64,000 nt of DNA. Origin: Malacoraja senta. Its lineage: Eukaryota. A model generated the notes under the pieces. That model was given only the letters and a program-made list of their open reading frames with translations, ran no database searches and was not told the DNA's origin. Positions 4,076-61,306 of the stretch are shown here, one piece after another. Both the position numbers and the translations under genes were made by a program. The DNA is taken from contig CM075977.1 in the NCBI GenBank assembly GCA_038087875.1, forward strand, positions 312,046,001-312,110,000, written 5' to 3'. The first letter of the stretch is position 1. The number at the start of each line of letters is the position of its first letter.

Positions 4076-5689
4076 TTTGCTTTTGTTTAAGAACCTTTCC
4101 TCCAAAAAAAATATGGACAGTTGCCGTGGGATTTTAATTCCATTTGCCTTTAACATATGCAGCAAATAGTTAAGGCTACCAGTTTTCTTGCTCAGTGATC
4201 TATGGCTATTATTCTGCAGGGCCAATAGATGACAACTCACCTTTAAGGTTTCGAGAGGAGTCATAGAAACATAGAAATATAGATGCAGGATGCAGCCATT
4301 CGGCCCTTTGAGCCAGCATCGCCATTCAATATGATCATGGCTGATCATCTAAAATCAGTATCTCGTTCCTGCTTTTCCCCCCAACATCCCTAGATTCCTT
4401 TAGCCCAAAGAGCTAAATGTGCTCATTGCCAAATCCCCAATTAACACTGTATCTAATGTGTGTTTCTCAAACCATTGTAGGTGGGTTTTTTTTCTACTAT
4501 TCTATTAACTGCACCTCACTATCTGTGGACATTCATCTCCATGTTGTATGATTAAATGATAATATTTTTGCAAGTCATGGATAGAAAGGAAGTTAAGTAT
4601 GTTGCAATGAAATGTTCCTGTTAAACTCCCCACTTTTCTTTTAAAATCCAGAGAAGACTGTTCCGTACCAGCCGACATTGTTCAAAATGGTTGTATTGGT
4701 TTTACCTATGAAGATTAACCAGACAACAATCCTCACTGTACTTGTCTAGGAGTGAATCATCCAGTTCATGGTTTGACCGGTGGCATTGTTCCAGGTCCCA
4801 AAACAAAATAAATTAAGCACACTGTATACTTTATACTTTTACAGACAAATTCACGAAGATCCACCTCTATACTATAATTATCATGTCTTTAATATCATTA
4901 CTAGGAATGGATCATCATCATTATAAATTACAGCACTCTAAATATTATTCAATGCAGAATACCTATTGGGTGGTGGAGGAGGAGAAGGAGAATAATTGAT
5001 AATCAAGATCAAAGCAGGATGCAAACAGTGGTTATGAATAAATTGTTGTAGAATTTTGCAGCAATTATTCATATGATGCTTATTTCTTTTAGGCTCTCAA
5101 AATATTTCTATGACCACAGATTTCATGGCTCCCAATATCATGAGCTTCAACAGCTTTTAATAACTCAATCCCTAAACATAGATAATTGCATTACCTGGAA
5201 ATAGCAAATGTATTAAATGGAAAGTTAAGAGAGACAGTTCAGGATGACTGTTAGAGCATATTCATGAGAATATTGTATGAAAAAAAAATGTCAGTGTGCA
5301 ATTTTAAGACTGAAGAAGGAGCAGACATTGTTCACTATACTGTCCAGACATTGAGATGAGCCATTTGTGGTCATTTATTTCACATTTCTCTAGGACACTC
5401 ATTTCTGGTGATATTAAGGTGGTATGAACTATGTAGTGCAGACCAGATAGCTAAGTTGCCTTCCCTGAAGGACTTTAAAATAATCTTCATAATTATATGG
5501 CACCTTAAATGATCTCAAGACTGCCAATAAGGTACTTTTGAAATGTTATTCCCAGTAGAATGTGGAAAAGTTGGCAATTCATTTGCTTTTATTTAGGGAA
5601 GTTCAAGAGATCTTCTGGTCATTATTTATTACCGTACTAGCCAATCTGCTTTTTTTTTAACCTTATTTACCAAATTCAATTTCACAATG

Positions 5690-15956: not shown

Positions 15957-16100
15957 ATGCCAGAGAGTGGCAGAATGGCAAGCTGTACAGAAAAAAAGCA
16001 GATTTGGTGAGTTGGCTGAACTGCAAGGAGATGAGTACGTAAAACAAGTTACCTATGCAGGAGAAGATGTATGGGTCATACTTCATCTTTACAGACCTGG
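15957..16100 (+). CDS. PDCL2: PDCL2 exon 4 (CQRVAEWQAVQKKSRFGELAELQGDEYVKQVTYAGEDVWVILHLYRPG)
   Basis: 144 nt, AG/GT; start of the thioredoxin-like domain (WVILHLY). Confidence 0.96.
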
Positions 16101-16776
16101 GTACGTAGTCAATCAGACCCCAGATGTTTCAGTCAGTTGTGCTAACATTTTATGAAGTTTCAACAAGGAACAACAGGATAACTAATTCTACAAACTAATG
16201 TCCCATATCATATGTGTTATTATTAAATGAAATAGGAATATTTTTGTTCACTCAAGATAAAATCACCAATATTGTTTGCAATGCTTCAAATTACAAAATA
16301 TTGGTGCACAATCAAGAATAATGTTTAGGTGGTAAATATTTGTAATTTGGAAGTTTTCAGAGATCATGCTCATTTATAAAACAGAAAATGTTGGAAAGAC
16401 TCTGTAGAGAAAGAAAACAAAAGTTAATACATTAGGTCAATGGCCTTTCATCAGAACTAGGAAAAACTAGAGATAAACAGATTTTAACATGCAGACATGA
16501 GAAGAGAAAGAAATAAGAGAGATTTGTGTTAGTGCGGATAGTGCAGGGTATTATAATGCAAGCTGAGAGAAAGAAGTACTGGGATACATAAATTAGCAGA
16601 AAGCTCATCTAGAGAAAGTGTGAATACGAGAAGCAGAGTCATTATCTGAAGTAACTAAAGCAAATAATGCTGGAAATCAGAAATAAAAATCGAGTCAAGA
16701 GCGTTACGAACAACAGAATAATGACACTCGGAGTTGCAGCAGCTTAAGGCCCATAAATGCAATGCACACTGATAGT

Positions 16777-17058
16777 CATCATCATCATCGTTGAAAACAT
16801 CAACCGGCACGGTGCCTGACAATGCTATGTACGACAGTGATCGCAACTTCTACTGAAGTATGAATGTCCGTTGGCTCGCTAGGAGCTCATCCGCGCTTTG
16901 ACAGGTCTTGGTTTTGGTCCTGTTGGGGTCCACAGACCCCATCCTCACCTGGCAAACCAGGTGGGGGAGACAGTTTAGTCGCCGTCTATCCGACCATGGA
17001 GCAGGTAGCACGGGATTACATGGTACCCGTGGCGGGGGGAACTCCCCCCGACCTGACG
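16777..17058 (-). mobile_element. Short non-autonomous retroposon (RTE-like tail), highly structured
   Basis: Flanked by the 8-bp direct repeat CTGATAGT (16769-16776 / 17059-17066). (GAT)n tail on the minus strand; GC-rich body with several hairpins. Confidence 0.8.
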
Positions 17059-18233
17059 CTGATAGTAGATCATTATTTTTAATTCAATAAAAATTCATCA
17101 AACGAATAACTGCTGATTATTTTAAATTGTTGAACTCACTGTTGAGTGAAGAAGACATCATGAGCCTTATTGGAAGATGTGCTAGTGTTCTTTGAGCTTA
17201 TGCTGCATTTTATCGGAATCATATAGAAGATGTGGGAATGGGATATAACAAATAAAATAATACTTGGGGCTCACTTGCAGAAGATGTTCCTCTAAACAGT
17301 TTTCAAATTTATATTTGGTCTCCCCAATGAACAGCAGGCCACAATATGAGGAAGGGAGCAAGTTTTTATTTTTATTTTTCATTTGTTTTTCAGAGTCTGG
17401 GCTCCAGGCCAGCATTTATTGTCCATCTATAATTGGCTTTGGAAAAGTGGTGGAGATCAGATTTCTTGAACTGCTCAAGTCCTTCTCGTGAGGGCACTCC
17501 CACAGTGGTGTTGGGAGGGGTTTCGTGAAAATGAAGGACCTGCAATATACTTTCAAGTCAGAATAGTGCATATTGGAGGCGAGTTCCCATGCACCTGGCT
17601 GCACTAGTCCTTTTTGGTGTTAAAGGTTGCAAGTTTGGAAGTGTCCAAATGGTGGAGGGAAGGAACATTTAGAGTACCATTCAAACATGCTGCTCTACGC
17701 TGGATGGGTTTTAGCTGCTGGAGCAGGATTCACCCAGTCAAATGGAGAGTATTCCATCAGACTCTTAAACTGCCTTGCAGATGTAGGAAAGAAGATGGCG
17801 TGTCAGGAGATAATAACTCACTGCAGGATACCCAGTATTTGACCTGGTCTTGGAAGCATGGTATTTATGATGTTAATCCAGCTTAGTTTCTGGTCAATGA
17901 TGATCCTAATAATATTAATGGTGAGGGACTTGGCAATGGTAATTGCTATTGTATGTCAAGGGTATGTTAGATCCTCCCTTGTTGGCATGGTCATTGGTAC
18001 TTTTATGGAATATCTCGTGAACTAATGATTAATTTGTTTGAATTAGATCCATTGGATGCCAAAACACAATTATTGATTGGAACAGTGTGACCTGCAAAAT
18101 AGAATAAATGTTGACATGGTATGATTAGCAAAGCCTTAAGAGACTTTTATCCTCCAAAGCAGTAGCAATAGGTTTGCAAAAAGTTTAATCTGCCCTTATT
18201 TATGAAACATTTTAAAATACAATAAAACATATT

Positions 18234-18512
18234 GGCGGCACAGAGGCGCAGCGGTAAAGTTGCTGCCTCACATGCCAGAGACACGAGTTTGATCCTGATA
18301 TGGGTACGGGTTGTATGGAGTTTGTACATGCTCTCTATGACCGTGTAGGTTTTCTCCAGTGTTCCGGTTTCCTCTCACATTCCAAATTATTTTGCTTTGT
18401 AATTTTGTGCCTAATGTGTAAGATAGAGGTAAATGGTCCCTAGTGCACCGATGATCGCTGGTCGGCATGGACTTGGGCCAAAGCCCCTGTTTCTACACTG
18501 TATCGTTAAACT
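18234..18512 (+). mobile_element. tRNA-derived SINE (HE1/V-SINE-like)
   Basis: GGCGCAGCGG A-box-like and GAGTTTGATCC B-box-like motifs; same body as the other copies. Confidence 0.75.
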
Positions 18513-22582: not shown

Positions 22583-25500
22583 AGTCAAGTGTCAAGAGAG
22601 TTTTATTGTCATGTGTCCCAGATAGGACATTGAAATTCTTGCTTGCTGCAGCACAACAGAATATATAAACATAATACTGAACAGGAGATAAAACGTTCAG
22701 TGTGTCTATATACCATAGACCATATATGTACACAATAAATAAACAGATAAAGTGCAATAGGCTGTAATTGTTCAGAGTTTGTTTGATGGCGAGTTTAATA
22801 GCCTGATGGCTGTGGGGAAGTAGCTGTTCCTGAACCTGGATGTTCCAGATTTCAAGCTCCTGTACCTTACCTTCTTCCCAATGGCAACGGAGAGACGAGT
22901 GTGTGGCCAGGATGGTGTGGGTCTTTGATGATGTTGGCAGACTTTCTGAGGCAGTGACTGCGATAGATCCCTTCGCTGGTGGGGAGGTCAGAGCCGATGA
23001 TGGACTGGGCAGTGTTCACAACTTTCTGCAATCTTTTCGCCTCCTGGACGTTCAAGTTATCGAACCGAGCCATGATGCAACCAGTCAGCATGCTCTCTAC
23101 TGTGCACCTGTAGATGTTCGAGAGAGTCCTCCTTGACAAACTGAATCTCCGTAATCTTCTCAGGAAGTAGAGGCGCTGATGTGCCTTCTTTATGATTGCA
23201 TCAGTGTGCTAGGACCAGGAAAGATCTTTGGAAATATGCACGCCCAGGAATTTGAAGTTCTTGACCCTTTCCACCATCGTCCCGTTGATATAAACGTGAT
23301 TGTGGGTCCTTATCCTACCCTTTCCAAAGTCCACAATCAGTTCCTTGGTTTTGCTGGTGTTGAGAGCCAGGTTGTTGTGCTGGCACCATATGGACAGTTG
23401 CTCGATCTCTCTTCTATACTCGGACTCATCACCATCAGTGATACGTCCCACAACAGTGGTGTCGTCGGCGAACTTGATGATGGAGTTCGAACTATGTCCA
23501 GCTACGCAGTCATGAGTATAGAATGAGTACAGCAGGGGGCTGAGCACGCAGCCTTGAGGTGCTCCCATGTTCATTGTTAACGAGGACACATTTGCACCAA
23601 TACGAAAAGACGGTGATCTGTGAATGAGGAAGTCGAGGATCCAATTGCAGAGGGATGCGCAGAGACCCAGATCTGATAGCTTGGTAACCAGCTTGGAGGA
23701 GATGATGGTATTAAACGCCAAGCTGTAGTCTATGAATAACAGCCTGACGTATGTTTTTTTGTTGTCTAAGTGGTCCAGAGCGGAGTGGAGAGCCAGTGAG
23801 ATCGCATCCATCGTTGACCTGTTGGGACAGTAAGCGAACTGCAGTGGGTCGAGGTTCTTGTCGAGGTAGGAGTTGATATGTGCCATAATCAACCTCTCAA
23901 AGCACTTCATCACCACAGACGTTAGTGCCAAGTCATTGAGGCACGTCACCTTGCTCTTCTTGGGCACCGGTATTATTGATGCCCTTTTAAAGCAGGTGGG
24001 AACCTCAGACCTCAGAAGTGAGAGGTTGAAAATGTCCGTAAAATCTCCAGCCGGTTGGTCCGCACAGGTTTTTAGAATACGTATACCATCAGGTCCAGGC
24101 GCTTTCCGAGGGCTCACCCGCCTGAAGGATCTTCTGATGTCGGCCTCTGTGACTGTGACTGAAATACCATCATGGCGAGTGGGGGCTCGGGAAGGCACAT
24201 CAGTGTTCTCCCTATCAAAGCGTAAAGGGCCTGTCCCACTTGGCCGCCATTTGCGCCTCATTTACGCGTCATATGTAAAATAGGTCGACGCGTCGTTACA
24301 CGCGATGTCGCGCGTAAATCATGCGTCATCATACCGTCTGCTGCGCGTGATGTCATTAGAATACCCTGCGGCACGCGGTGACGCATGGTTACGCACGGCG
24401 ACATAACCATGCGTCATGCGATACACGTGAGATGTCGGAATGCAGCGTGTGATGCCAATGCGTCAGCATGCGTACCCAATGCGTCAGCGTGCGTATGCGA
24501 TATGTCACACAGGTGGCGAGCGAGGATTTTGTGCAGCACAAAATCCTGGAGCGCCGCGCTATACCGCGCACAACTCCACACTCCTCCACGCCTCTCCATG
24601 CGCTCGTCCCGCGCTACCCACACGCTACCCACGCGTCACAACGCATCGACCTATTTTACATATGACGTGTAAATGAGGCGCAAATGACGGCCATGTGGGA
24701 CAAGCCCTTAAGTAGAATGCATTGAGCTTGTCGGAGTGATGCTTCGCTGACATTTGAGCTGCCTCCTGATTTTGCCTTATAGGAGGTGATGGCATTCAAG
24801 CCCCGCCACAGTTGCCGAACATCCGTCTCATCCTCTAGCTTGGAGCAGAAGTCCCTTTTGGCCTTTTTGATGGCCTTACCAAGGTCGTATCTGGACTTCT
24901 TGTAGACCTCTATGTCTCCAGACCTGAATGCCCAGGATCTGGTCTTCAGAAGAATGCGGATCTCATGGTTTATCCAAGGCTTCTGGTTAGGAAACACTCG
25001 GAAGGTTTTTGTTGGGATGCAGTCCTCCACACATTTCTTTATGAAGTCTGTAACGACTGTGGCATATTCATTCAGGTCCGTTGCCGAGTCCCTGAACATT
25101 ACCCAGTCTACAGACTCCAAGCAGTCCTGTAGTTGTTCCTCTGCCCCCCCTCCCCTCCCCCCCGACCAGCTCTGTGCAGTCCTCATCTCTGGGGGTGCAC
25201 TCTTCAATTTCTGCCTGTAGGAAGGAAGAAGCAGCACCGCAGTATGGTCGGTTTTACCGAAGTGAGGGCGAGGGATAGAGCGATAGGTATCCTTGATGGT
25301 TATGTAGCAGTGGTCGAGGGTGTTTGGTCCTCTGGTGCTGCAGGAGACATGTTGGTGGAAGTTAGGGAGCGATTTCTTAAGGTTGGCTTTGTTGAAGTCC
25401 CCGGCAATGGTGGTAAATGCCTCGGGGTAAGCCGTCTGGTGCTTGTTGACCACGGCGTGCAGCTCCTCCAGTGCAAGATGGACGTCTGCCTGGGGTGGGA

Positions 25501-26050: not shown

Positions 26051-29000
26051 CAGCACATAACTTTTTAACTAAGACTAGTCAGATTTTTCACTGTAGCACC
26101 TTGCCTGACAAAAACAATTGCATACTAGGGTGAGAAAATGTGACTTGTCCTTAAATAGCAGTAGACCAACAATAATTTCTGTGCCTTGGTGAGAAGGTTA
26201 AATTAAATGGTGGCCTGATCAACAAAATAGAAAGATTAAACGAAAACTTACCGTTTGATGTTTGATCTTTATTTTATGAGGAGTTACGATGAGCGATTAC
26301 GTGAAGAAGGCCGTCAGTCTGCATGCGCGTCAATCTTTAAAGCAGCGGTGTGAAATCACAGATAACAGTTGTTAAACTAAACATAGTAAGATTAGAGAGA
26401 ACTAGAACTACCAGATGATCTTTATGATACGAGGGTTGGGAGTGGAGGGCACGTAATCGCTCATCGTAACTCCTCATAAAATAAAGATCAAACTTCAAAC
26501 TGGTAAGTTCTCGTTTAATCTTACTATTTTACTTCGGAGTCACGTGAGTGACTACGTGAAGATTTTAAAGCTCTGTGATATTATGCCGTGGATACGAGTC
26601 CATGCGTCACATACTGCATCAGTTGACCAGGATGAGTGAAAATAATTAATGCATTCAGACATGATATAGACAAAAAATGCTGATTTTTTAATAATCAAAG
26701 AAAATAATAGTGACCCCTCTCATCCAGGGGGAAACTATAAAACAGAACCTAAAATTGAATTAGCAAAAACCCCCCGTCTGGCGATAGGTTTGTTATAAAA
26801 CCTTTGGAACGTCAGTTCTTTAGACCATCCTGCAGCCGCTAGAATGTGGTCGAGAGGGACGTCCATATCCCTCGCTGCTGACATAGATGCAGCCCTGGTG
26901 GAGTGAGGTTTAAAAATGTCAGTGTCCACTCCTGCACATGCCAGAACCTGTTTTAACCATCTTGAAATGGTCTGCACTGTAACCTTCCTATGAGGTTTTG
27001 TGTAGCTGATGAATAAAGATAATTCGGAGCCTCTGAGGCTCTTAGTGACCTTGATGTATTGTAGTATGCGTGTAACTACACACAACCATAGGTCTAAGGG
27101 GTATGCCATAAAAATTAATTTGTGCCCCGACACCTCGGGTCTGCTCTGCTTAATTAAATCATAAACAAAAAAGGTAATATTATCAATAGATTAAACCATG
27201 CTGTCCAGTCGTAGTTTATGTAATGTCTGGACCCGTTGCGCTGAAACCAGTGCCATGAGCATGACCACCTTGAGAGTGAGATTGAGCAGAGACAGAGATG
27301 AGGCTGGAGCCCACTGGCGAAGCAGCGTGAGTACCATGCTCACATCCCATATCTGTGAATATCGGGCCCTAGGGGGAGTAGAGTTAAAAATGCCCTTCAT
27401 AAATCTGGTTATTAAGAGGTGAGACCCGACAGTGTGGTGTCCTGACCCCAGCCATAAGTAAGATGATAATGCGCTCCTAGCATTATTTATGGCACTATAA
27501 CTGAGTTTCTGATCGTAGAATAGTGTAGATAGGAACTCCAAAACATCCGTAATGGAAGCCGTGTCCTACGAAATTTTCGAGAGAGAGCAGTACATCTCCC
27601 ATTTCCTTATATGAGTGATGTACTGTTTCTGGGTACTCTTCCTCCAGGCCGCAGTGATTACATCAACCGTACGATCTGAAAGTCCGAGCCCCAGGAACAG
27701 TCTCCACAGAATCTGCAAACCAATAAATTGATTCGGTCATGTAGTGGATGGTTTTCCCCTGTCACAGGATGAACCAGCATATTTCTGCTTTTGGGGACAG
27801 CCATAAAAGGCTGTGTAATCATACCTAGGACAAGTGGGAACCAATGCTGTGTAGGCCAGTCTGGTACTACCAATATGCCAGAGGTGGAGTCTTGCTTGAT
27901 TTTGGCCAAGCACCGACTGATGAGGCAAAATGGGGGAAAGGCCTACAAGAACTTTCCACCCCAGTGCAGTGAGAATGCATCTACTGCCACTGCCCCTGGG
28001 TCTGGTTCTCATGAAACGTATTTTGGTAACTGGTGATTTAGTCTGGATGCAAACAAATCGATATCCGGTACGCCATACCCAGCGACAATGTCATTAAACA
28101 CTTCATGATTCAACATCCATTCTGTGTTGTCATTGAATTTCCGTGACCTGGTGTCCGCCACCATGTTATATCTACCTGGTAAGTAGATAGCTGAAACCCA
28201 GATGTTTCTCGTAATACACCAGTGCCAAATAAGGTTAGACAATTTATCACAGGATACAGACTTAATTCCACCCATGTGATTAATGTATGCTACCGCTGTA
28301 GTGTTGTCAATCTGAAGTTGAACATGCACATGATGCATATTGCTACAATAAGCCTTCAGCCCATAGAGTGCTCCCAACAACTCTAAGTAGTTAATACCAT
28401 GTGACTGAAGAATTAATGATTCCTGCATATTCCATCTCCCACTGCAGCTTGAGACGTGTTTGTAGCACCCAATCCTAGAGCACTAGCATCAGTTTGTAGG
28501 ATAACTGATGGTGTATCGACTAAAATTACACTGGAGCAATGCTGAATATTGGTCACCCACCATTGTTACTCAGCAATGGCTTCAGGTCTACCGCATAGGT
28601 CTACCGAAGTGACCTTTATGAAATTTGAGTGCCTGCTCCTTTGCACGTTGTAAGTTTTGGTAGTGCAAAGGCCCGAACTGAGCAGCTGGGAAAGCAGCCA
28701 CTAATTTGCCAATTATACTAGCCACATGTCTAATAGAATGTTGGTCCTTAACAATGAGATTGTTACAGGCTTCAATTAATTCTAATTGCTTGCCCCAAGG
28801 CAGAGTCACTGACATGTGAAATGAGTTAATGGTGAATCCCAAATAATCAATTACTCTAGATGGTACCAATTTGGATTTAACTGGATGGATGAGGAACCCC
28901 AATCTCTCAAACATGAGTTTGGTAGCTGACACAGATAATTCAGCTAATTTCATAGTTTTCCCTATGATTAGGATGTCATCCAAGTATGCCATCACAATAT

Positions 29001-30607
29001 GATTCTGAGCCCTGAGTAGCCCCAGGACTGGTTTTAGCAATTTAGTGAATAATCTGGGGGCTGAGGTTAACCCATTAGGCAATGCTTTAAACTGCCACAG
29101 TTGCCCCATCCAGCTAAACTTCAAATATCTCCAGTGATCCCCATGAATGGGCACCGAATAGTCTGCATCTTTGAGGTCGATGCATGCCATATAACATCCC
29201 TTGGAAACCAGTTGTTTGGCAGTAACAAAGTTTTCCATTTTGAAGTGTTTATACTGCACAAAGGTGTTAAGCTCAGTCAAGTCAAGGATGATTCGGCATC
29301 CTCCATCCTTCTTTTGCTTAGTAAATATATTGGACATAAATTGGTGAGACTCATGACACGACATCTCAATTACCCCTTTTTTGTGTAATGATTCAATTTC
29401 AGCTTGCGCATCCGCACACTCCTGTTGTGAAAGAACAAATGTGCGGTTCGGTGTATGCTGTGTGGGTGGAAGCGAATTGAGAAGGAACTCAATTTGGAAA
29501 CCTTGTATACTGTGCAGTATAAATGGATCTGATGTTATCAAATGCCATTCATTCAAGAAAAATTGTAATCTCCCCCCAACTTGTAACTGATCCATAAACA
29601 ATGTGTTCTGCAAATAACCAGACTCACCTACCTCAATGGTTACCGGTGGTATGGTGTTGGTTTCTGCCCCTGAGGTTTGTGGGGTAGGACTGTTGGAGGG
29701 CGCCATCCGCGCATCTTGAACGTGGGCCGGCTTGGGCCTAGCCCTAAAAAAGGCCTCTGTGCCTGTTGTTCGGGTTTCCCACCATATTCAGCGAACCGTC
29801 TGGTGTTGAGAGGGGCATAGCGGTGCTGCCGCCGGAAAGATGAATTCTTGGAAGATGTTGGGACCTTCATAAGCCCGACCACTTTAGCTTCATCATCCAG
29901 CTCCCTGACCTGCTTCGGCAGATCTTCACCGAACAGGAGGTTAGGTGGTTGGATGTTGCCGGCCTTGCACAATGCTGCAAATTTGGGGTTCAGAGCAGGA
30001 CGGATGGCATTCTTTCATAGGCAATTTATCTCAAAATGTGTCTTGCACATTAATGCCATGGCATCCTGCTGAACATCAGACAGGGGCCCCCCATCCACTG
30101 ACCTGGCAAAGGCCGTGATGCCTGAGGCGAGCAACCTTAATATTTCTTGTAACATCACCTCCTGGGCTCTGATGCCCCCTCCAATATAACCCCAGATGGA
30201 GTGATTTACTGCCGGCACATTCAATGAGGCACAGTTTGCAGGGGTATGGTACTTGGTGGTGGTTTCCTCCATGGCCCGATCTTGGAGCTGGTGAGAGGCC
30301 AGGTAGTTAATGCTCATGGCTAAATCCTCTCCCAGCAGTTCCCCTGTTAGAGACGGTATAGCAAATTTGGATGCCATTGGGGGTACTTCCAAATCTTGCC
30401 CTTCATGCCTTGAAGCATGCTCCCCAGCTGTGCCTCCGTACTCTGAGTCAGTGTAGAACTGGCCCGAATGCTCCCCTCCTCAGAGAGAAAGACATTTTGC
30501 AGCCCTGAGACAGGTGCCACTGCCGCGGGCTCTCTAGGATACCTGGGCTCAGATAGCTCCCTCCTTTGGAGCATATCATTTTGGAGCAACCTCTCCATCA
30601 GGTGCTC

Positions 30608-43920: not shown

Positions 43921-46900
43921 TTTTTTTAAATCGAAATCTTTTTTATTTAGTTTTCAGGACATAACAATGTGCAAAGTTGTCCATTTGTTACAGACAGAGT
44001 GTACGAAAAGAGTAAATAAAAAACAACTTATGCCAACATAACAAGACAACAACAATAAAAGAAAAACAAGATACCAAAAATAATCCCTCCCCAGTCACTG
44101 CCAGTGATCATATGCAAATATCAGCCTGTCACAACAATAATCCACGATAAGTGAATGGGTAGACTGTTAAGCTGTTAAACTGTGCTTGATGATCAAGCAT
44201 TTACAAAGTCTGGAATGCATTTAAAAAAGGTCCCCACGCTTTCTGAAACCTTCCATTTGAATGTTGAAGTGAGTACCTGATTTTCTCGAGCTTTAGGCAG
44301 GACATAATATCTGTCAGCCATTGTGTATGAGCGGGCAGGTTAGGTTCCATGCACCTGAGCAGGATTGTTCGCCGAGCCAGAAGAGAAGCAAAAGATATAG
44401 TGCGGCGTTTATCTGCAGTTAATCTAACCTCCTCACCAGTGACCCCAAAAAGAGCGATTAGAGGCTCTGGTTTCAATTTGATGTTTAACACCTGAGATAA
44501 TGTATGAAAGACCTCTAGCCAGAACTTGTTAAGGCTGGGGCATGACCAATACATATGGTTAAGAGAGGCTTCAGAAATTTTACATCTAGCACAGAATAGA
44601 CTAACCTCAGGGTAAAAAGTAGATAATTTGGCTTTTGAGATATGAGCCCTATTAATTGGATCAGACAGTGACGAGCACATAGAGAGGTGGAATTAACCAG
44701 TTTAAGAATGGAACTCCATGTATCTTCCGAGAGAGAGAAGCCCAAGTCTTCCTCCTATGCTGCCTTGAGCTTGTCCATGGGGGCGCGCCTTAGATCCAAC
44801 ATCCTGCCATATAAAGCTGAGACAAGTCTATTCTGAGATGGGTTTAAAGAAAGAACTCTATCTACAAGGGTTGTGTCTGTTGGTATAGAAGAGCTGGGCA
44901 GCTTATAGAACACATAATGTCTTGTTTGCAGGTATCGGAAAAAGTCTGACTTTGGAAGATTAAATTTGTTGCTTAATTGTTCAAATGTTGCTATAGTGTT
45001 GCCCATAAGCAGGTCCTTGAAGCACACAATACCCTTCCTATGCCATTCTTTAAAGACAGCATCATGAGTTGATGGTTTAAAAAGGTGGTTTGATGCAATA
45101 GGGCTCAGTAGAGAAAAGTTATGCAACCCAAAACATTTCCTGAATTGAACCCATATCCTCAAAGAGTGTTTAACCACTGGATCTTTTACAGATTTAATTG
45201 AGGGGAGTGGAAGTGAGGAACCAAGTAGTACAGGTATGGACATATTATCATCTGTGTGTAATTCCATGGCTACCCAGTTAGGGCAATCGGGCTGGCTGTG
45301 AAAGAAAGACCAAAATGCAAGGCAGCGCAGGTTAGCAACCCAATAATAAAAGCGAAAGTTTGGGAGAGCCAGGCCACCAGCAGCCTTGGTTTTTTGAAGG
45401 TGGGCCTTATTAAGACGAGGCCGCTTACCTCTCCATATATAGGAGGAAATAACTGAGTCAAGATGGTCAAAGAAGGACCTGGGGATAAAACCCGGTAAGG
45501 CCTGAAAAAGGTACAAACATTTGGTAAAATGGTCATTTTGATTGAATTTATCCGGCCGACAAGTGACATTGACAGGGGTGACCACTGTGTTAGCATCTGT
45601 TTGATCTGGTTTAACAGAATGATAAAATTATCTTTGAAAAGATCCTTGTATTTCCTCGTAACTGAACCACCCAAGTATGAGAGCTTGTTTTTTTCAATTT
45701 TGAATGGCAAGTTGGTAAGATCCGAGGGTTGTACTTCATAGTTAATGTGAAACAGTTCGCTTTTTCCAAGATTTATCTTATAACCTGAAAATTGACCAAA
45801 ATTATTGAGCAGTGACATAGCAGAATGCAGAGAGGTGCCTGGGTTTGAGACAAAAAGCAAAAGGTCGTCAGCATATAGTGAGACCTTATGCTGTGTACTG
45901 CCCCTCCAAATACCGGCTATGTCCTCACAGCTGCGAAAGGCCATGGCAAGTGGTTCGATGGCCAAGTCAAAAAGCATGGGGCACAGAGGACACCCCTGGC
46001 GGGTTCCACGATGCAAGTCGAACGGCTTGGACAACTGTGAATTAGTCTGAACTGAGGCTGTGGGATGAGAGTATAGTAACCTGATCCATGAAATAAAGTT
46101 TGTTCCAAAACCAAATTTGTCCAGAACAGCCCATAGTTAGACCCACTCAACACGGTCAAATGCTTTTTCTGCATCAATAGATACGACACACTCAGGGACA
46201 TCCTCAGAAGCAGGGTAGACAATATCTAATAATCGACGTATGTTAAAGAAGGAATGTCTGCTCTTAACAAAGCCGGTTTGGTCCTCAGATATAACAGTAG
46301 GGAGGGCATTCTCTAGTCTATGAGCTAGAACCTTAGCTAAAATGTTAGCATCCGTGTTTAGAAGGGAAACGGGTCTGTAGGAGGCGCATTCGGTTGGATC
46401 TTTACCTTTTTTGGCGATAAGAGTAATACAGGCTCCGGCAAAGGATGGAGGAAGAGAACCTTGTCTGTAGGATTCAGATAGAACGGAACACAACTGTGGG
46501 GAAAGGAGTAGAGATAACTTTTTTTTAAACTCTGCCGGGAAGCCGTCAGGGCCTGGACATTTGCCTGATTGCATTGAGGAAATGGCTGAAGCTATTTCTG
46601 CCTGTGATATGGGTTCATCCAATCTTTCCCTAAAATCTAATGAGAGTTTGGGAATATTTAGACTGCTCAGAAAGTCATGCATTACCTTATGATCCGGTTG
46701 AGATTCTGAAGTATACAGCTGGGAATAAAAGTCTCTGAAAGCATCATTAATTCGCAAGTGATCCGAAGTGAACTGGCCATTAAGCATGCGAATTTTAGAA
46801 ATATTTTGTCTCGCTTTAGCACCTTTAAGTTGATTTGCAAGTAATTTGTCAGTTTTATCTCCATATGTGTAAAACATGGCTTTATTTTTTTAAAGTATGT

Positions 46901-49900: not shown

Positions 49901-52900
49901 TCCTTAAGTACTCTGGGATGCAGCCTATCTGGCCCTGGGAATTTATCGGCCTTTAATCCATTCAATTTTACCCAACACCACTTCCCGACTAACCTGGATT
50001 TCACTCAGTTCCTCCATCTCCTTTGACCCCGCGGCCCCCTGCTATTTCCCGCAGATTATTTATGTCTTCCTTAGTGAAGACGGAACCAAAGTAGTTATTC
50101 AGTTGGTCCGCCATATCCTTGTTCTCCAATGATCAATTCACCTGTTTCTGACCTGCAAGGGACCTACATTTGTTGTTTAACTAATCTGTTTCTCTTCACA
50201 TATCTATAAAAACTTTTGCAGTCAGTTTTTTATGTTCCCTGCCAGTTTCCTTTCATAATCTATTTTTCCTTTCCTAATTAAGCCCTTTGTCCTCCTCTGC
50301 GGTCTCTGAATTTCTCCCAGTCCTCTGGTATGCTGCTTTTTCTGGCTAATTTGTACGCATTATCTTTTGCTTTGATACTATCCCTGATTTCCCTTGTTAT
50401 CCACGGATGCACTACCTTCCCTGATTTATTCTTTTGCCAAACTGGGATGAACAATTTTTGTAGTTCATCCATGCAGTCTTTAAATGCCTTCCATTGCATA
50501 TCCACCATCAACCCTTTTAGAACTAATTGCCAGTCAATCTTGGCCAATTCACGTCTCATACCCTCAAAGTTACCTTTCTTTAAGTTCAGAACCGTTGTTT
50601 CTGAATTAACTATGTCACTCTCCATCCTAATGAAGAACTCAACCATATTATTGGTCACTCTTGCCCAAGGGGGCACGCACAACAAGACTGCTAACTAACC
50701 CTTCCTCATTACTCAATACTACTTCTTCATTACTCAATGCCATCCCCAACTTCACTACTACTGCTAGGTGGCCTGTACACAACACCCACCAGTGTTTTCT
50801 GCCCCTTAGTGTTTCGCAGCTCTACCCATACCGATTCCACATCCTCCAAGCTAATGTCCTTCCTTTCCACTGTGTTAATCTCCTCTCTAACCAGCAACGC
50901 TACCCCACCTCCTTTTCCTTTCTCTCTATCCCTCCTGAATATTGAATATCCCTGGATGTTCAGCTCCCAGCCTTGGTCACCCTGGAGCCATGTCTCCGTG
51001 ATCCCAACTATATCATAATCATTAATTGCTATCTGCACGTTCAACTCATCCACCTTATTACGAATGCTCCTTGCATTGAGACACAAAGCCTTCAGGCTTG
51101 TGTTTACAACGCTCTTAACCCTTATACAATTATGTTGAAAATTGGCCCTTTTTGATTTTTGCCCTGGATTTGTCTGCCTGCCACTTTTACTTTTCACCTT
51201 GCTACCTATTGCTTCCGCCCGCATTTTACACCCCTCTGTTTCTCTGCTCACCCATTTAAGAACCCCACCACCTCTTATTCTCTGTTTATTATTGTTTTCT
51301 TCTTTCCCCCCTGCATGTTGGGTCTGAGTGCTTTCCTTCTCTGCCTCCTGCCTCACACACCGTCTAATAGCATTCTCTATTTGAGTCCCTCCCCCCAACC
51401 ATTCTAGTTTAAAGTCTCCCCAGTAGCCTTTGCAGATCTCCCCGCCAGGATATTGGTCCCCCTCAGGTTTAAGTGCAACCCATCCTTTTTGTACAGGTCG
51501 AACCTTCCACAAAAGAGGTCCCAATGGTCCAGAAATTTGAATCCCTGCCTTCTGCACCAGTCCTTGAGCCACGCATTTATCCTCCACCTCGCTCCATTCC
51601 TACTCTCACTGTCGTGTGGCACAGGCAGTAATTCCGAGATTGTCCTTCTCTTTAACTCCCCTCCTAACTCCCTAAATTCTCCTTTCAGGACCTCTTCTCT
51701 TTTTTTACCTATGTCATTGGTACCTATATGTACCACGACCTCGGGCTCCTCTCCCTGCCCTTTCAGGATATCTTGGACACGTTGAGACACATCACAGACC
51801 CTGGCACCAGGGAGGCAAACTACCATCCGGGTCTTCCGACTGCGTCCACAGAATCGCCTGTCTGACCCCCTAACTATAGAGTCCCCTATTAGTATTGCCC
51901 TCCTCTTCTTTTCCTTACCCTTCTGAGCAACAGGGCCGGTCTCTATACCGGAGGCCCGGCCGCTGTCGCTACCCCCGGTAGGCTGTCCACCCCAACAGTC
52001 CTCAAACAGGAGTACTTATTGTCAAGGTGTACAGCCACCGGGGTACTCTCTAGTCCCTGCCTGTGCCCCTTGCCTCTCCCAACCGTGATCCACTTTCCTG
52101 CCTCCTGTGGTCTTGGAGTGACCACATCCCTGTAACTCCTCTCAATGACTTCCTCGCTCTCCCTGACCAGACGGAGGTCATCGAGCTGCTGCTCCAGGTT
52201 CCTAATACGGTCCATTAGGAGCCCCATCTCGATACACCTGGCGCAGATGTGGACGTCTGGAGGGCTATCAGACTCCATGACTTCCCACATCTGACATCCA
52301 GAACAGTAAACTGCCCTGGCCCTCATACTCCCCTTACTTAGGATACAATAGAAAACAAACTGCTACAATACAAAACAAACTGCTACAATACAAAACAAAC
52401 TGTGTCAACAGTGAACTAAATGGTTATATGTAACCGAAAACTCACATGGGTTAACATGTCCTTAAAAATATGAATGCAGCTTGAAAGTTACTTACTGGCC
52501 CATAAGAGCTTTTAAAGAACCGAAGTTAGAACGCAACAGTACACAGATATAGGGCCAGGCCATATGTGGTAACAGCACACAAAAATCCAGCTGGAAATCG
52601 TTTCTAATTTACAGTGCACATATAGTGATATTTGGCTGTAGCCATTTTGTATAAGTATATTAGTAAATAAGCAGCACACCCGGATGAATAAGCACGTTCA
52701 GCCATGTAAACAAACCACAGACGTTAGCTGACATGCTGCACGACGTGCCAGTAGGTAGAGCTATACAGTGTTACCTCTCATCTAGTGGGTTCAAAGTTCC
52801 TAAACAGAGTCTTTATATGGGTTTAGGTGACCTAGGGAGGCTGTCGATATATTTCTGCGCCTCCTGGGCTGAGTTTATCCACTTTCTGGCTCCACCGGAC

Positions 52901-53698
52901 AACGTGAGACGGAGTCGAGCTGGATATAGCAGAGCAGGCTTTAGTCCCAGTTTGTAAAGTTCTGCCATGACGTCTCTGTAATCTGCCTGCTGGCTCTGAA
53001 CTTCAGGGCTGTAATCGTCCACAATCCGAATTGGTTTTCCGCGAAATTCAAGATTCCCTCTCCGCCGTGCCTCTCTGATGAGGAGATCCTTCGTCTGGTA
53101 CCGATGCAGGCGGAGAATGACTGGCCGCGGTCTCTGGCCGGGGGCCGGTTTAGCGTTTAGGGAGCGATGGGCTCTGTCGACTTCTGGAGGGGATGTCAAC
53201 GTCTCGCTCCCGAAAACCTCTCGCAGCAAACTGGAGAAAAACTCAGTGGGCCGTCCGCTTTCAGTGGATTCCGGTAGACCGAGGATGCGTATGTTTTGTC
53301 GCCGACTTCGGCCCTCCAAGTCGGCCACTTTATGTCACCACTCAGAGTGGAACAAATGTTCTCAAGGTCGACGACTCGCTGGTTAAGGTCCTCTGCAGAA
53401 AGTTCCAGGGATGAGACACGTTGATCATGATACTCCACTGTAAGCTTCATTTGGTCTAGCTTTGAGTCGAGCCGACCAACCAAAGTTCTAACCTCGGTGG
53501 CTAGCGCAGCGTGGTAATAGCCTCCAAGCCAACATCCGCATCCTCCCTTTTGCTTGACCTTGTACCCTTCGAAGTCATTTAGAGAGACGGCAACACTTAA
53601 TCTAAAGGAATGTCAGACAAGTAAAAAAAAGCTGACTTCGTTCTGGTGTAAAAGTTAGAGGGCGGAATGTTATGAAAATTATAAGATTACCGGAGCAC
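43917..53698 (-). mobile_element. Full-length fish-type L1 (ORF1 + ORF2), frameshifted, with a CR1 in its inter-ORF spacer
   Basis: ORF1 ~52813-53578 (LEGRSRRQNIRILGLPE, EVDRAHR). ORF2 44201-47949 (SWNVKGLN, SRIDYF, SDH, PGPDG, GTRQGCP, YADD, CARC...H...C). Poly(A) near 43917-43927. Confidence 0.95.
48367..52397 (-). mobile_element. Full-length CR1 LINE with zinc-finger/esterase ORF1
   Basis: ORF1 CSGC..CARC + coiled coil + SGNH-type GTND/DGLH motifs (51404-52326). ORF2 APE (LNARSIRNK, ETWL) and RT (PQGSVLGP, KFADD). CTATG-type tail; TSD AACTGTGTCA at 48357-48366 and 52398-52407. Confidence 0.95.
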
Positions 53699-55581: not shown

Positions 55582-58500
55582 TGTAGATGAGATATGCATG
55601 TGCCTTTAACATAGTGACCTCATACCTACTAACCACTCCCCATATCACAAGTATATCTACAACCTCCCCACCCACAGATCGCTCTCTAGTTCCTGTGACA
55701 GACCACGTACAGCTAGTGCAATGTGTAATGATCCAGTATGAATAAAGATAGTAAAGTAACGATGCCTCGTTATACACTCTTTACAAGCCGGATCTGACTT
55801 TAACCGATGCTATGCACGCTACTCGCTTAGCTGAAGCTGTTTCCTCGGCGGCGGCGCCGGCTGAGCAGGCGATCAACTTTGCCAGCACTCCCAGTCATCT
55901 CATGAACACACCCCAGTCGCGACCCCCGGGGTCGCTCACTGCTCGAGGGGGACGCGCCCCGGGGTTCGGTGCTGCTACAGGGGGAGGTACCCGGCAAAGG
56001 TGCCCTAATTGCAACTTCACGACTCATCAATTCAATGTGTGCCCTGCCTTGGGGAAAACGTGTAATGTCTGCAAAAAATTGAACCATTTTGCTGCGGCTT
56101 GTCGTTCCCGTGGGAAGCCTGTCGCTGCTCGAAGGGGAAATTTAAACAACCTTCTACAAGCTGACAGTGAGCTCAGCTCCCAGTGCTATTTCGATGAACA
56201 GTCTGTTTCTGCATCTGACTCCTCTCAGGGGGAGACCAACTTGTTTACCGTGTTGGACGCACCTGCTATGATAACGGACCCTTCTGTGCTAGTCACTGTG
56301 AACAACTCGACCTTCACTGCTAAGATCGACACGGGGGCTGTGGCCAACGTAGTGTCAACATCTCTTTTCAACCAGATAAGAACTAATGAGCAGATATTTT
56401 CCCAGAGCTCAACCTTGCATGCCTACGGTGGGGAGATTCTTACTCCTGTGGGCAAGGCCACGCTACGCTGTAAGATACTAGAGACCTCTCGGCCCCTCAC
56501 CTTCTATCTCCTCAATCAAAAATGCATTCCCCTGCTGGGGATCCAGGCATGCCAGGAAATGGGACTGGTGTACTTCCACCGTGACATCCACCAGGTGCTG
56601 ACTCTTATGGACCCGCTGGCCGATTATCCCGACCGCTTTGATGATAAGCTAGGCAAACTACCCTGCAGCTACAAGATTGTAGTGGACCATAAGATCGTTC
56701 CTGTGGTCCATGCTCCTCACCGTGTCTCCTTCGCCATGAGGGACAGAGTGGAGCCGACCCTACACAGTATGGTACAAATGGGCATCCTAAAGGCGGTCGT
56801 CGAGCCCACCAGCTGGGTCTCTTCCATGGTTGTTGCTGCTAAAAAGGACATGAGCGAGATATGCATCTGCATCAACCCCAAAGACCTCAACCTGGCCATT
56901 AGACGCCCTCACTACCCTATGAGAACGGTGGAAGAAGTCGCTGCACAGGTTGGTCCAGCAACGGTTTTTTCTGTCCTCGATGCCAAAAGCTCCTTCTGGC
57001 AGATACCACTGGACGAGCGGTCGTCCATTTTGACAACTTTCGCCACCCCCTACGGAAGGTTTCGGTTCCTCCGAATGCCATTCGGGATCAACTCTGCCAG
57101 CGAGGTATTTCAGCGGACAATGGAGCAGTTGTTTTTAGGTCTACCTTGCGCCATAATTGTTGACGACATCCTCGTTTACGGTAAGGACGTTGCCGAACAC
57201 GATGTCAACCTCCGCCAGGTCCTGGACCGGGCCCGGCAAATCAACTTGAAACTGAACCCCAAGAAGTGCCGATTCCGCGTCCCGGAGGTCACCTATGTTG
57301 GACATGTATTCACCGCTGAGGGGTTAAAGCCAGACCCGCAGAAAACGGCTGCCATCTCAGGGATGCCCCCTCCTACCAATGTGGCAGGCCTGCAACGCTT
57401 CCTAGGCTTGGTAAACTACCTGGGGAAGTTCATCCCCGACCTCAGCGAGCTCAGCGCTCCCCTGAGGGATCTGATCAAAAAGGACACGTCCTGGCTTTGG
57501 TTACCCAACCATCAGAAGGCATTCGACATTCTTAAGTCTAAGCTGATCAGCACCCCCACGCTCAAGTTCTTTGACCTGCAGCGTCCCATTGTCCTCACCT
57601 GCGACGCCTCTCAGTTCGGACTCGGTGCCGCCTGTCTCCAGGTCCATGACGGCCTGCAGCTGCCTGTCTCCTTCGCGTCCCGCACCATGACCGCCACCGA
57701 ACAGCACTACACGCAGATTGAGAAGGAGCTACTGGCCGTGGTGTTTGCCTGCTCCAAATTCTGGGACTACATCGTGGGCAACAATTTCACCGTTGAAACT
57801 GACCATCAGCCACTTGTCACCATCCTCAACAAGTCGATCCATGTGGCCTCATCACGCCTGCAGCGCATGATGCTGCAGCTCCAGCGCTTCACGTTCACGG
57901 TGGTTTATCGTAAGGGCAAGGACATGTTCGTGGCCGACACGTTGTCTCGCGCCCCGCTGACGTCCACCGCTCGCCACCAATATGAAATGTCTGAGCTATT
58001 GGTGCTACGATTGAACATCGTCCCCTCACAGCAGATGAAGTCCCTGGTTGAACACACTACCAATGACCCTGCCCTGCAACAGCTGTCTGCCGTCATCCGG
58101 CAGGGCTGGCCTGACCGTCGTTCGGCACTGCCGGCTGGTGCCGTGCCCTACTTCCTGGTCCGGGACGAGCTCGTACTGCACGACGGCGTGGTGGTGAAGG
58201 GTCACAAAGTGGTCGTGCCCGCGGCGCTGCACGACCACTATTTTCAAGTCGCTCACCGCGGTCATCCTGGGGCCGAAGCCACCGTGTCTCTCGCCAGGAG
58301 CCAGTTCTATTGGCCGGATATGGCCAAATACATCCGGGAGAGGGTCTCCTCGTGTTCCACCTGCAACAGCCTTGCCCCCCACCAGCAGCGTCAGCCGCTT
58401 CTGCAGCAGCCCGCGTCCGAACTGCCCTGGATGGCGCTTGCCGCTGACATTTTCGAGTGGCGGGGCAAACATTTCCTGGTTCTCGTTGACTCCTACTCCA

Positions 58501-59764
58501 GCTGGTTTGTGGTCGACCGGCTGCATTCCATAACCTCTTCGGCCGTCATCGATAGGTTGTACCCTCATTTTGGCAATTTTGGCCCCCCGGCAAGTCGGAC
58601 AATGGCAGCCAGTTCACGAGCTCCGAGTTTAAAGCGTTCGCTTCCAGATGGAACTTCCGCCATTTCACCAGCAGCCCGGAGTACCCGCAAAGCAACGGTT
58701 TGGCCGAGCGCGCAGTCCGCAGCGCGAAGCACCTGTTCGAACAGTGTGGTGGCATTAACTCCGACTTCCATCTGGCCCTCCTCAACCTTCGGAACATTTC
58801 CCGCGACTCTGCCATGGGTTCACCTGCTCAGCGGCTCATGTCTCGCGCTACCAGACTCCCGCTCCCTGTGGCCCAGCGCTCAGTCATACCCTCCATCCTC
58901 CCACCTACGGCGGTTCAGAAACGCATTGCCTTCAGGCACGACGTCCAACAGCGTTCCCATGACAGGTCCTGCCACCCGCTGCCGCGCCTCTTCCCCGGTC
59001 AAGTTGTCCGTATGCAGACCGCTCCCGGTCACTCCAAGCTCGCTACCGTCGTCGGCTCTGCTGGGTCGCCCAGGTCCTATCTCGTCGACCACGCTGGAGC
59101 CATTTACCGACGGTCCCGCCAGCACCTTCGGCTCGTCAACGAGCCGCGTCCTCCTGCCGCGGATCCCTTTGCTCCCCCACTGCCTGTTTCGCGTCAGGGC
59201 GTTGCTCTGCCCGTCCTTCCTGACATGCAACGTTCTGCTCCTCCTCAGCCCCTTCCGTTCCACCCCACTCCGACTAGTCCTCGCTCGCCTGCCCGCGCTC
59301 TTCCCGGTCCCGATCTCGCATCCCCTCCGGGTTCGGTGCCGCGGTCTCCTCCGTCTCCTCCCGTTTCTCCCTTTCAGGTTCGTCTGTCCCCGCCGGTGCC
59401 TCTTCCTCCTGCAGGAAGGGTGGATGGCGAGACGCGAACCCGGGCGGGACGTCTTGTCAAACCGCCTGACTGCTATGGCGATTTTGTTTAACTATCCTAG
59501 CGCATGAGCCGTGGTCGCCATGTCACCATTGTATTTGCCTGTCGTTTCGAAGAGGAAAGATGTAGATGAGATATGCATGTGCCTTTAACATAGTGACCTC
59601 ATACCTACTAACCACTCCCCATATCACAAGTATATCTACAACCTCCCCACCCACAGATCGCTCTCTAGTTCCTGTGACAGACCACGTACAGCTAGTGCAA
59701 TGTGTAATGATCCAGTATGAATAAAGATAGTAAAGTAACGATGCCTCGTTATACACTCTTTACA
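55582..59764 (+). mobile_element. Gypsy (Mag-clade-like) LTR retrotransposon, young, gag-deleted
   Basis: 204-bp TG...CA LTRs at 55582-55785 and 59561-59764 that look identical; TSD GGTGT; PPT GAAGAGGAAAGA. Double CCHC, protease IDTGA, RT IVDD, RNase H CDAS/EKELLA/TDH, integrase HHCC. Confidence 0.97.
55812..59491 (+). pseudogene. Gypsy gag-pol polyprotein, N-terminally deleted and frameshifted in integrase
   Basis: The 1231-aa ORF loses homology at ~58595. The integrase core SDNGSQF...SSPEYPQSNGLAER continues in the frame of ORF 58700-59491. Confidence 0.9.
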
Positions 59765-61306
59765 GGTGTGTAGTGGGGAGACCTGCTTTACGTAGTCTTC
59801 GGAGAGGGTGTAGTCGCTGCTGGGCTCTCTTGACCAGTGCTGTGGTGTTGGTCGTGGACGTCAGGTCATCTGACAGGTGGAGTCCTGGGAACTTCACGCT
59901 GTTGACCCTTTCCACATCAGCTCCATCGATGTTCAGAGGTGTATGGTGTTGTTTTCCCGCCCTCCTGAAGTCAACCACCATCTCCTTGGTTTTTCCCACG
60001 TTGAGAATGAGGTTGTGGGATTTGCACCATCCTGTGAGCAGCTCCACCTCCATCCTGTACGCCGACTCATCATTGTCACTGATGAGACCCACCACTGTTG
60101 TGTCATCAGCGAACTTGTTGATGAAGTTGTTGTTGAGTCTAGCAGTACAGTCGTGTGTTAGCAGACTAAACAGCAGGGGGCTTAGGACACAGCCTTGGGG
60201 TGAGCCAGTGCTCACGGCTATGGTTTTTGATGTCCTACTGCCCACCCTGATTGTCTGCTGCCGTTGCGATAGAAAGTTCAGGACCCAGTTACATGTGCCA
60301 GCATCAACCCCCAATAGCTCCAACTTCTCCACCAACTGCTGCAGAATGATTGTATTAAAAGCAGAGCTGAAGTCTATGAAGAGGATCCTGGCATAAGTAT
60401 TTTTCCGATCAAGGTGTGACAGTACGAGGTTCAGTGTTGTTGAGACTGCATCCTCTGTGGATCGGTTGGCTCTGTAGGCGAACTGCAGTGGGTCTAGGTC
60501 GGCAGGTAGACTATTTTTGATATGCTGCATAACCAGTCGCTCAAAACATTTCATTACTATGGGTGTTAGAGCCACTGGTCGATAGTCATTATGGCAATAA
60601 TCCATTCAGTCCACCCTCTCCCCCTTCTCTCTCACAGTCTGTCACCTGTTTTGGGCAGAATTTCTGGCAGTTTCTCAGCTGCCAGCCTGCCAGGTCCGAG
60701 TGACTGTACTCCCAGGCCTCAGTGACTGAGCTGCCTGGCTTCAGTGACTGAGCTGCCAGCCCAAGAATCCATTCGGCCCACAATATCCATACTAGCCCTC
60801 TGGAAACAAGTACCTTCGGCCCACAACACCCACACTAGCGCAACAGAAAGCACCCCCCCCCCCCACCCCCACTGGCCAGCAATATTGGAATTGGTGGAGA
60901 GGTGGAATATTGCGTTGGGTGACCAGCCCTCCGGTGTGATGCTGGGACCCAACGGGTTCCACTTAGTCTAGTTTAATTCTATTCCTTTATTGTAGTGAGT
61001 GGACATTTGGTAACTTCCTATCTAGTGACACTGTGGGAGTTTCTGATTGGACCAGTGGCAATTTACCATCAGCTTCTCAAGGACAATTATGAATGGGCAA
61101 ACTATGTAATTAAAACCCTCGCTATTTGCATTCTCACCTCCTCCCACCATCCCTACCTGTCCTAAGAAACCACAATAATTTATTGGCCTTTGTACCCCTT
61201 TGTTGCTCTTCAGGCTTGAATTCTTATGTGTAATTCATATGATATTCTTCAATGAGCTTGCTGTCATTACTTCTTGCTGAACCATAAACTTAGCAATTAC
61301 TTTGGC

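Follow-up and report, generated by a model that had tools for sequence, protein, structure and literature searches.

A short retroposon in the Malacoraja senta genome appears to be a deleted RTE-type LINE with a flavivirus-like, probably exonuclease-stalling RNA fold at its 5' end

The 64,000-nt stretch of contig CM075977.1 analysed here (hereafter, the window) contains a 282-bp retroposon that raises two questions, namely from which source so short a mobile RNA derives, and what its structured 5' end does. The preliminary description, made from the letters of the sequence, had presented it as a LINE-mobilised RNA whose pseudoknotted 5' fold might process itself and might be undescribed. The hairpins listed there, the (GAT)n tail and the perfect 8-bp target-site duplication CTGATAGT were all read directly at the claimed places of the minus strand (Table 1). 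The CACGGG/CCCGTG stem was likewise present, with its ACCATG loop complementary to the downstream CATGGT. A box search of the element found no tRNA A/B box, and it contained no ORF longer than 30 aa from Met, in agreement with the same description. The GTCG/CGAC region and the GGGGTC/GACCCC hairpin are present in the window copy but are not exactly the family state, because this copy has private changes: most of 30 aligned copies have TAGTC with CCGTC, and GGGGGC-TGTG, whereas the window copy has TAGAC with CTGTC, and GGGGTC-TGTG. The first bases are GGTC in most copies and CGTC in the window copy. Folding of the whole element gave z = -2.59, with 2 of 200 shuffles equally good. The Rfam search of the 64-kb window returned nothing at gathering score, and the search around the element at E ≤ 10 nothing meaningful. 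The neighbouring exon of the host gene, at 15958-16098, resembles phosducin-like protein 3 (E 2.8e-13).

As judged by sequence comparison, the element derives by internal deletion from a LINE of presumed RTE type, of which the two ends remain. The full-length partner LINE in the same genome, L181 (1 of 20 extended loci), extends over ~3.86 kb and comprises the 5' end, broken endonuclease and RT frames, and then the common 3' end. Nucleotides 2-244 of the element are 90.7% identical to the 5' end of L181, and its nt 245-253 and 259-276 are identical in sequence to the LINE 3' end. We classify the element as a bipartite non-autonomous LINE derivative because its 5' and 3' parts match the two ends of L181. 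The 5' part stops just ahead of the likely start codon, placed from the N-termini of homologous proteins; two patterns guessing the start of the partner ORF gave nothing useful. The common 3' end was present in 30 of 30 loci read, a few of them shortened. A pattern on the 3' part of a sister family, which reads like the end of the RT frame, occurred at 230 places, and the 30 that were read comprised 28 LINE 3' ends and 2 sister-family copies.

The partner's relatives encode ~1,000-aa single-ORF proteins with endonuclease and RT domains, and its named endonuclease relatives come from a sea star, rays, bony fish, a sea urchin, a lancelet and a hydrozoan. We take the partner to belong to the RTE group, probably RTEX; it is 29% identical to a DUF6451-bearing family. 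Two DUF6451-bearing LINE families, and further LINE families from the endonuclease search, were rejected as partners, neither end being in common with the element. The matches to the ends of L181 bear out the proposed LINE-mobilised retroposon without Pol III boxes, from a 5' UTR of presumed RTE type. The head is a LINE 5' UTR with no box or Rfam match and not that of a tRNA-, 5S- or 7SL-derived SINE.

Bipartite non-autonomous RTE elements are known (RTE-N1_Lch, 262 bp; RTE-N2_Lch, 286 bp; RTESINE1/2; WALLSI3; PMC5786205). They also consist of a LINE 5' UTR and 3' end fused by internal deletion, without a small-RNA head, and have a similar size and a microsatellite tail; in the accessible parts of that source, they differ in that no head like an exoribonuclease-resistant RNA (xrRNA) is described for them. 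In its supplement, four of five short element terms were absent and the tail repeat alone was present. The retroposon is ordinary in kind; the head is the surprising part.

The genome holds at least 2,286 first-look candidate copies of the element, and the best 39 other copies (of 40 scored) are 91-94% identical to it. Element position ≤ 14 was reached by 24 of 29 loci chosen on the 3' end alone and by 13 of 20 chosen by the sister-family pattern. Part of the element's words were also found in runs from eight organisms, with no RNA run among those listed. A ~400-bp sister deletion family (L130-L149) has the same nt 1-244; contig loose ends at 16815, considered as an alternative tail, were rejected as such and correspond to this family. 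A 26-nt pattern just beyond the junction of the short family, which a full LINE can hold too, had 381 exact matches. Divergence among copies was 0.033 in the 5' motif and 0.030 elsewhere; such equality is what dead copies should show and lends the motif no support. We also observed a third deletion form (L208), and 5' halves of the partner LINE in which the endonuclease frame stays open over a long stretch and the head carries deletions (L202-L205; G000:C16, C2194); these halves have common flanks (segmental duplication).

The first 66 nt of the element very probably fold as a flavivirus subclass-1a xrRNA, to judge from pairing pattern and covariation (Table 1). The preliminary description had treated the first two hairpins as separate; both are present, but the closing helix CAGGU/ACCUG, which joins them into a three-way junction, had been overlooked. 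The L3 loop carries ACCAUG at 17019-17024. The first S1 base is C in the window copy and G in most copies, and the outer PK1 pair is lost in the window copy. The second module, around GGCGACUAAAC, is kept in L243 and L258 and replaced in L236 and family 2, four carriers of the motif described below.

Table 1. Coordinates of the retroposon and of the predicted parts of its 5' motif within the window
Feature	Position	Strand	Basis or remark
282-bp bipartite non-autonomous retroposon	16777..17058	-	antisense, within intron of phosducin-like gene
Target-site duplication, copy past the 3' tail	16769..16776	+	read directly
Target-site duplication, copy ahead of the 5' end	17059..17066	+	read directly
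Partner-LINE 5' UTR (element nt 2-244), ending just ahead of the likely start codon	16815..17057	-	90.7% identity to L181
Partner-LINE 3' end, again shortened internally by ~24 nt, plus (GAT)n tail	16777..16814	-	exact matches, nt 245-253 and 259-276
Subclass-1a xrRNA-like motif (element nt 1-66)	16993..17058	-	covariation, feature tests
S1: predicted PK1 partner of S3 (two bases), and U predicted in base triple	17056..17058	-
P1, 5' strand CAGGU	17051..17055	-	alignment fold, covariation
P2 hairpin (first hairpin of the preliminary description)	17033..17050	-	two-sided changes in 4 of 6 pairs
Single C separating P2 and P3 (subclass-1a discriminator)	17032	-	7 of 7 sequences, 6 lineages
P3 stem of 6 bp whose second pair is A-U, capped by 11-nt loop L3	17009..17031	-	two-sided changes in 3 of 6 pairs
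S3, PK1 junction bases	17007..17008	-	outer pair covaries G-C / U-A / G-U / U-G over lineages
P1, 3' strand ACCUG	17002..17006	-
S4 CAUGGU, 3' strand of loop pseudoknot PK2 (pseudoknot of the preliminary description)	16993..16998	-	two-sided changes in 2 of 5 pairs
Second module: putative helix P4 or second H-type pseudoknot	16969..16993	-

A diverged head was located upstream of the ORF in L236, L243 and L258, among 80 of 245 metagenome loci with related endonucleases. The alignment of these three with two family copies folded unaided into the three-way junction (RNAalifold, 5 sequences). The covariance model matched the untrained head of a second family of the same genome (L128, E 1e-10), copies of which start at the motif; this family 2 (L128, L344-L373, e.g. 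G000:C4:66800019-66800269) has 108 first-look candidates, many apparently short bipartite derivatives. A sixth lineage, L306, was found by a descriptor of which the junction C was a condition, and shows two compensated P1 pairs; a second model, trained without L306, placed it top among 35 loci (E 0.008). The motif hence stands in the 5' leader of six LINE lineages, with endonucleases 23-47% identical where alignable. Its support rests on these six, of which three and L306 are single contigs and two are families with a mapped 5' boundary.

In six sequences of five lineages, 93% of cells were paired and 10 pairs had two-sided changes (1 of 500 shuffles as high), against at most 4 in slid controls. 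The covariation score was 0.378, compared with 0.131 for shuffled and ≤ 0.119 for slid alignments, and across the six lineages compensatory changes were found in every helix. The pseudoknot of the preliminary description proved well founded in that PK2 pairs covary over distant LINE lineages. In L258 and family 2, PK2 pairs only after its register is shifted (a single register pairs 70% of cells), and in L306 it has only 3 bp. Single-sequence folding of the motif was unremarkable (z from -1.59 to +0.70), and the three-way junction was the minimum-energy structure in only two of seven sequences. The strict descriptor, written after the motif was seen, matched 12 of 30, 4 of 20 and 15 of 30 genomic copies in three sets and did not match full-length L181; on both strands of the window this element was its only match, and 0 of 500 element shuffles passed. 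A minus-strand descriptor match in L310 was taken as chance.

The head appears to be an exchangeable module, because the endonucleases of its carriers are so diverged and close relatives carry other heads, twister included. It occurs on both sides of the best-supported split of the endonuclease tree, which comes from a quick, unfinished search and for which we claim no order of events. Pattern and protein searches of viral contigs gave no homologue of the motif. The prokaryotic genomes gave 0 and 5 pattern matches (≤ 15.8 bits), of which three aligned without P3 pairing; the two others sit in coding frames and were not counted as homologues.

Literature statements here refer to the accessible parts of the sources cited. 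As reported in PMC7527734, subclass-1a xrRNAs form a three-way junction with P1 of 5 bp, P3 of 4-8 bp and P2 of 1-9 bp, and all seven motif sequences form it with 5, 6-7 and 4-9 bp, respectively. The single conserved C between P2 and P3 (PMC8374639, PMC7527734) was present in all seven. The subclass further has a PK1 of up to two pairs joining the 5' end to the junction, the inner one G-C, and a U-A-U base triple (PMC7527734, PMC8571300, PMC5760640, PMC7749634, PMC13161572, PMC8374639, PMC4829329). In our sequences, the inner G-C occurred in 7 of 7, and the outer pair was G-C, U-A, G-U or U-G in 6 of 7, broken in the window copy only. Over the six lineages the outer pair reads G-U, U-A, G-C, G-C, U-A and U-G and was not required by any search; as read from the alignment, no other single sign of the xrRNA tertiary fold is as strong as this covariation. 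The U ahead of P1 and the A-U second pair of P3 are invariant and agree with the Rfam consensus; that these form the triple is a register we presume. A figure legend in PMC4829329 puts the A-U pair of the triple in P1. PK2, described as 2-7 bp between L3 and S4 (PMC8571300), has 3-6 bp here, G-U included, with register shifts in two lineages.

Rfam Flavivirus_SLIV (RF01415) came first, with matches along the full length of the model, in two of five sequences, L243 (22.6 bits, E 0.032) and L349 (18.4 bits, E 0.24); both scores lie far below the gathering score of 54.5, and the window, L345 and L258 were unmatched. The viral subclass-1a elements of Zika, MVEV, dengue and West Nile share with the LINE motif the CAGG/CCUG P1 core, the variable P2, the junction C and the 6-bp P3, as well as the two-pair PK1 with inner G-C and the L3-S4 pseudoknot; the 5' boundary of the DNA copies, ~5-7 nt ahead of P1, may be a further parallel. 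The suggestion of an undescribed fold was not upheld; on sequence-testable features, the layout is the described subclass-1a xrRNA of mosquito-borne flaviviruses, a class that does not cut itself but holds up nucleases. The viral members withstand Xrn1 unaided by protein and form a ring about the 5' end. The two nevertheless differ in context, the viral element lying in the viral 3' UTR and the LINE motif at the 5' end of chromosomal retrotransposons. The former leads to a non-coding decay product, whereas the latter would yield RNA that serves as template for retrotransposition and, in the case of the LINE, as mRNA. The LINE motif, whose nuclease resistance is a prediction, also scores under the RF01415 gathering score.

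In viruses, the halt site was placed 5-6 nt ahead of P1 in PMC5760640, and PMC13161572 puts it upstream of PK1 by two bases. With genomic copies as a DNA proxy, bases were non-random from -1 to -7 ahead of P1 in family 1 (79 copies) and from -1 to -5 in family 2 (24 copies), and at background further out. These counts left out 12 family-1 and 5 family-2 copies without a recognisable P1 strand, and 33 loci picked by 5'-motif patterns, some of which held the upstream bases. The gap between duplication and P1 was 0-18 nt (median 6) in the 39 of 91 copies with a detected duplication; the scoring mis-called the window copy's own. In L028, L029, L030, L150 and others, we noted that the bases between duplication and element often copy the element's own start, with one apparent snap-back. 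A precise 5' end common to copies, for which the preliminary description had proposed a check, was found in part: the motif stands at the boundary in two families, but the boundary fades over several bases. Such a boundary agrees with trimming by an exonuclease and less well with cleavage at a single bond, although target preference or untemplated additions could contribute to the upstream base bias. The earlier idea that the pseudoknot-bearing fold defines the RNA's 5' terminus is likely correct, given the covariation and the place of the motif at the 5' boundary of the DNA copies.

RTE-type elements have been described as promoter-less and freed from co-transcripts by ribozymes (PMC6765202). 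The reading we favour, and consider probable, is that the element is a deleted RTE-type LINE whose subclass-1a xrRNA-like head would make its 5' end by stalling a host exonuclease; that nuclease stalling is the job of the fold has, in our estimate, a good chance of being right. A copy would be transcribed within a host or read-through transcript, and decapping, debranching or cleavage would create an upstream entry point. Xrn1 or Xrn2 would degrade toward the element and halt ~5-7 nt ahead of P1, leaving a protected RNA that retains the 3' end recognised by the LINE protein. Reverse transcription would then copy this RNA into a new site; the enzyme would come upon the knot from the 3' side and pass it, as reverse transcriptase is able to do with such knots (PMC4829329). 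The knot would thereby take the part that HDV-like or twister ribozymes play in other RTE elements. We propose that the deletion derivative, with both the knot and the 3' recognition end retained, may therefore have been amplified far beyond its parent. We must also note that the window copy is antisense to the host gene and lacks the outer PK1 pair, both of which count against this scheme.

A real fold could serve another RNA job without any trimming of a co-transcript, by protecting a ready-made 5' end, binding the LINE protein for the 5' junction or supporting cap-independent translation. The fold is kept in non-coding derivatives of both families, extra bases like the element's own start are often found between duplication and element, and such extra roles have been discussed for retrotransposon ribozymes (PMC6765202). 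We nevertheless consider this unlikely: the exact tertiary signature tied to nuclease resistance in viruses is retained (PMC8571300, PMC5760640), and the boundary lies at halt distance. Quite improbable, too, is a 5' segment that acts chiefly at the DNA level, as an internal Pol II promoter with secondary pairing, a role put forward for the LP head and demonstrated for Pr77. LINE 5' ends often contain internal promoters, a dual role is possible, and a clade-shared 5'-terminal 70-bp domain has been read so (PMC4758252), but two-sided changes in four helices and two pseudoknots cannot come from DNA-level constraint, and the LP head differs in sequence.

That a self-cleaving ribozyme, new or aberrant in class, excises the element from a co-transcript, as first suggested, is very improbable, since the xrRNA core accounts for every invariant base, motif-bearing sequences have no Rfam ribozyme match, and the boundary fades over several bases and differs between families, unlike one bond. 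Its position is that of the ribozymes of other RTE elements (PMC5786205), related LINE heads contain twister matches, and contig loose ends pile up at 17056-17057 in two DNA runs. In four lineages, P1 can also be extended by drawing a terminal G-U pair, an option that fails in family 2. In the motif-bearing sequences scanned, none of the twister, hammerhead, pistol, hatchet and twister-sister Rfam models matched, and the same approach did pick up twister-P1 (E 1e-5 to 7e-5) in the heads of three other LINEs. These twister-P1-like starts, under gathering score, lie in L110 at 4159-4233 (-), L113 at 771-844 and L250 at 1-50 (E 7e-5, 2e-5 and 9e-6) and belong to another LINE family of the same genome and a metagenome relative. 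An HDV-like ribozyme has a nested double pseudoknot with a 3-bp P3, a short P1.1 and a P2 closed 3' of the catalytic C; on inspection, the motif instead has a 6-bp P3, a local P2 hairpin and an exchangeable downstream module. The HDV descriptor gave no match in five of seven motif sequences and poor ones in two, and was also unsuccessful on presumed controls. Other LINE families (L069/L071, L116/L120/L123, L235) have another conserved 5' head, presumably HDV-like; Rfam at E ≤ 0.1 gave no match for the three of these scanned. Hairpin-ribozyme, pistol and permuted-pistol readings were dropped, the required loops being missing.

A close parallel is with ribozyme-headed non-LTR elements (HDV-like in R2, L1Tc and RTE; twister in Schistosoma RTE), whose first nucleotides likewise form a compact structured RNA by which the 5' end inside a co-transcript is likely set. 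Those heads cut RNA chemically, whereas the xrRNA-like fold is predicted to block a host enzyme mechanically. The LP ("LINE promoter") head (Nimb-17_LMi, I-3_DR, RTE-9_CPB, mollusc SINEs) is likewise a ~70-nt 5'-terminal domain common to distant LINE clades and their non-autonomous derivatives, but it has another sequence, lacks the two-hairpin junction in the accessible text and was proposed as a promoter (PMC4758252).

A 2021 review stated that xrRNAs were characterised in viruses only and that their presence in eukaryotic genomes was an open question (PMC8374639). The literature searched, with most subscription journals outside the search, contained in its accessible parts no report of xrRNA in retrotransposons, and bioRxiv 2025.03.11.642701 and PMC12397905 concern viral elements. 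We tentatively advance, as a possibility somewhat short of probable, that flavivirus-type xrRNAs are native and old in animal retrotransposons, and that many RTE-group LINEs use knot-stalled exonucleases for their 5' ends and swap the knots between lineages. In this broader proposal, the near-identical core suggests a common origin with viral subclass-1a through retrotransposon-virus exchange. If true, LINEs said to be promoter-less would have, besides ribozymes and promoters, a third way of forming their 5' ends, and the origin of the flavivirus element could be seen from a new angle. The copies would also provide concrete, high-copy chromosomal xrRNA candidates with natural covariation, and natural 5'-protecting modules compatible with retrotransposition, of use in RNA-templated insertion tools.

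Elsewhere in the window, a 1,250-codon open frame at 55755-59507 (+) belongs to an LTR retrotransposon, with domains for RT, RNase H and integrase zinc. Other LINEs have left an L1-type ORF1 piece and several RT fragments at 52813-53334 (-), 23209-24261, 28588-29787, 45270-46889 and 59760-60605, and the stretch at ~18225-18510 (+) has, by eye, the look of what we take to be a tRNA-derived SINE.
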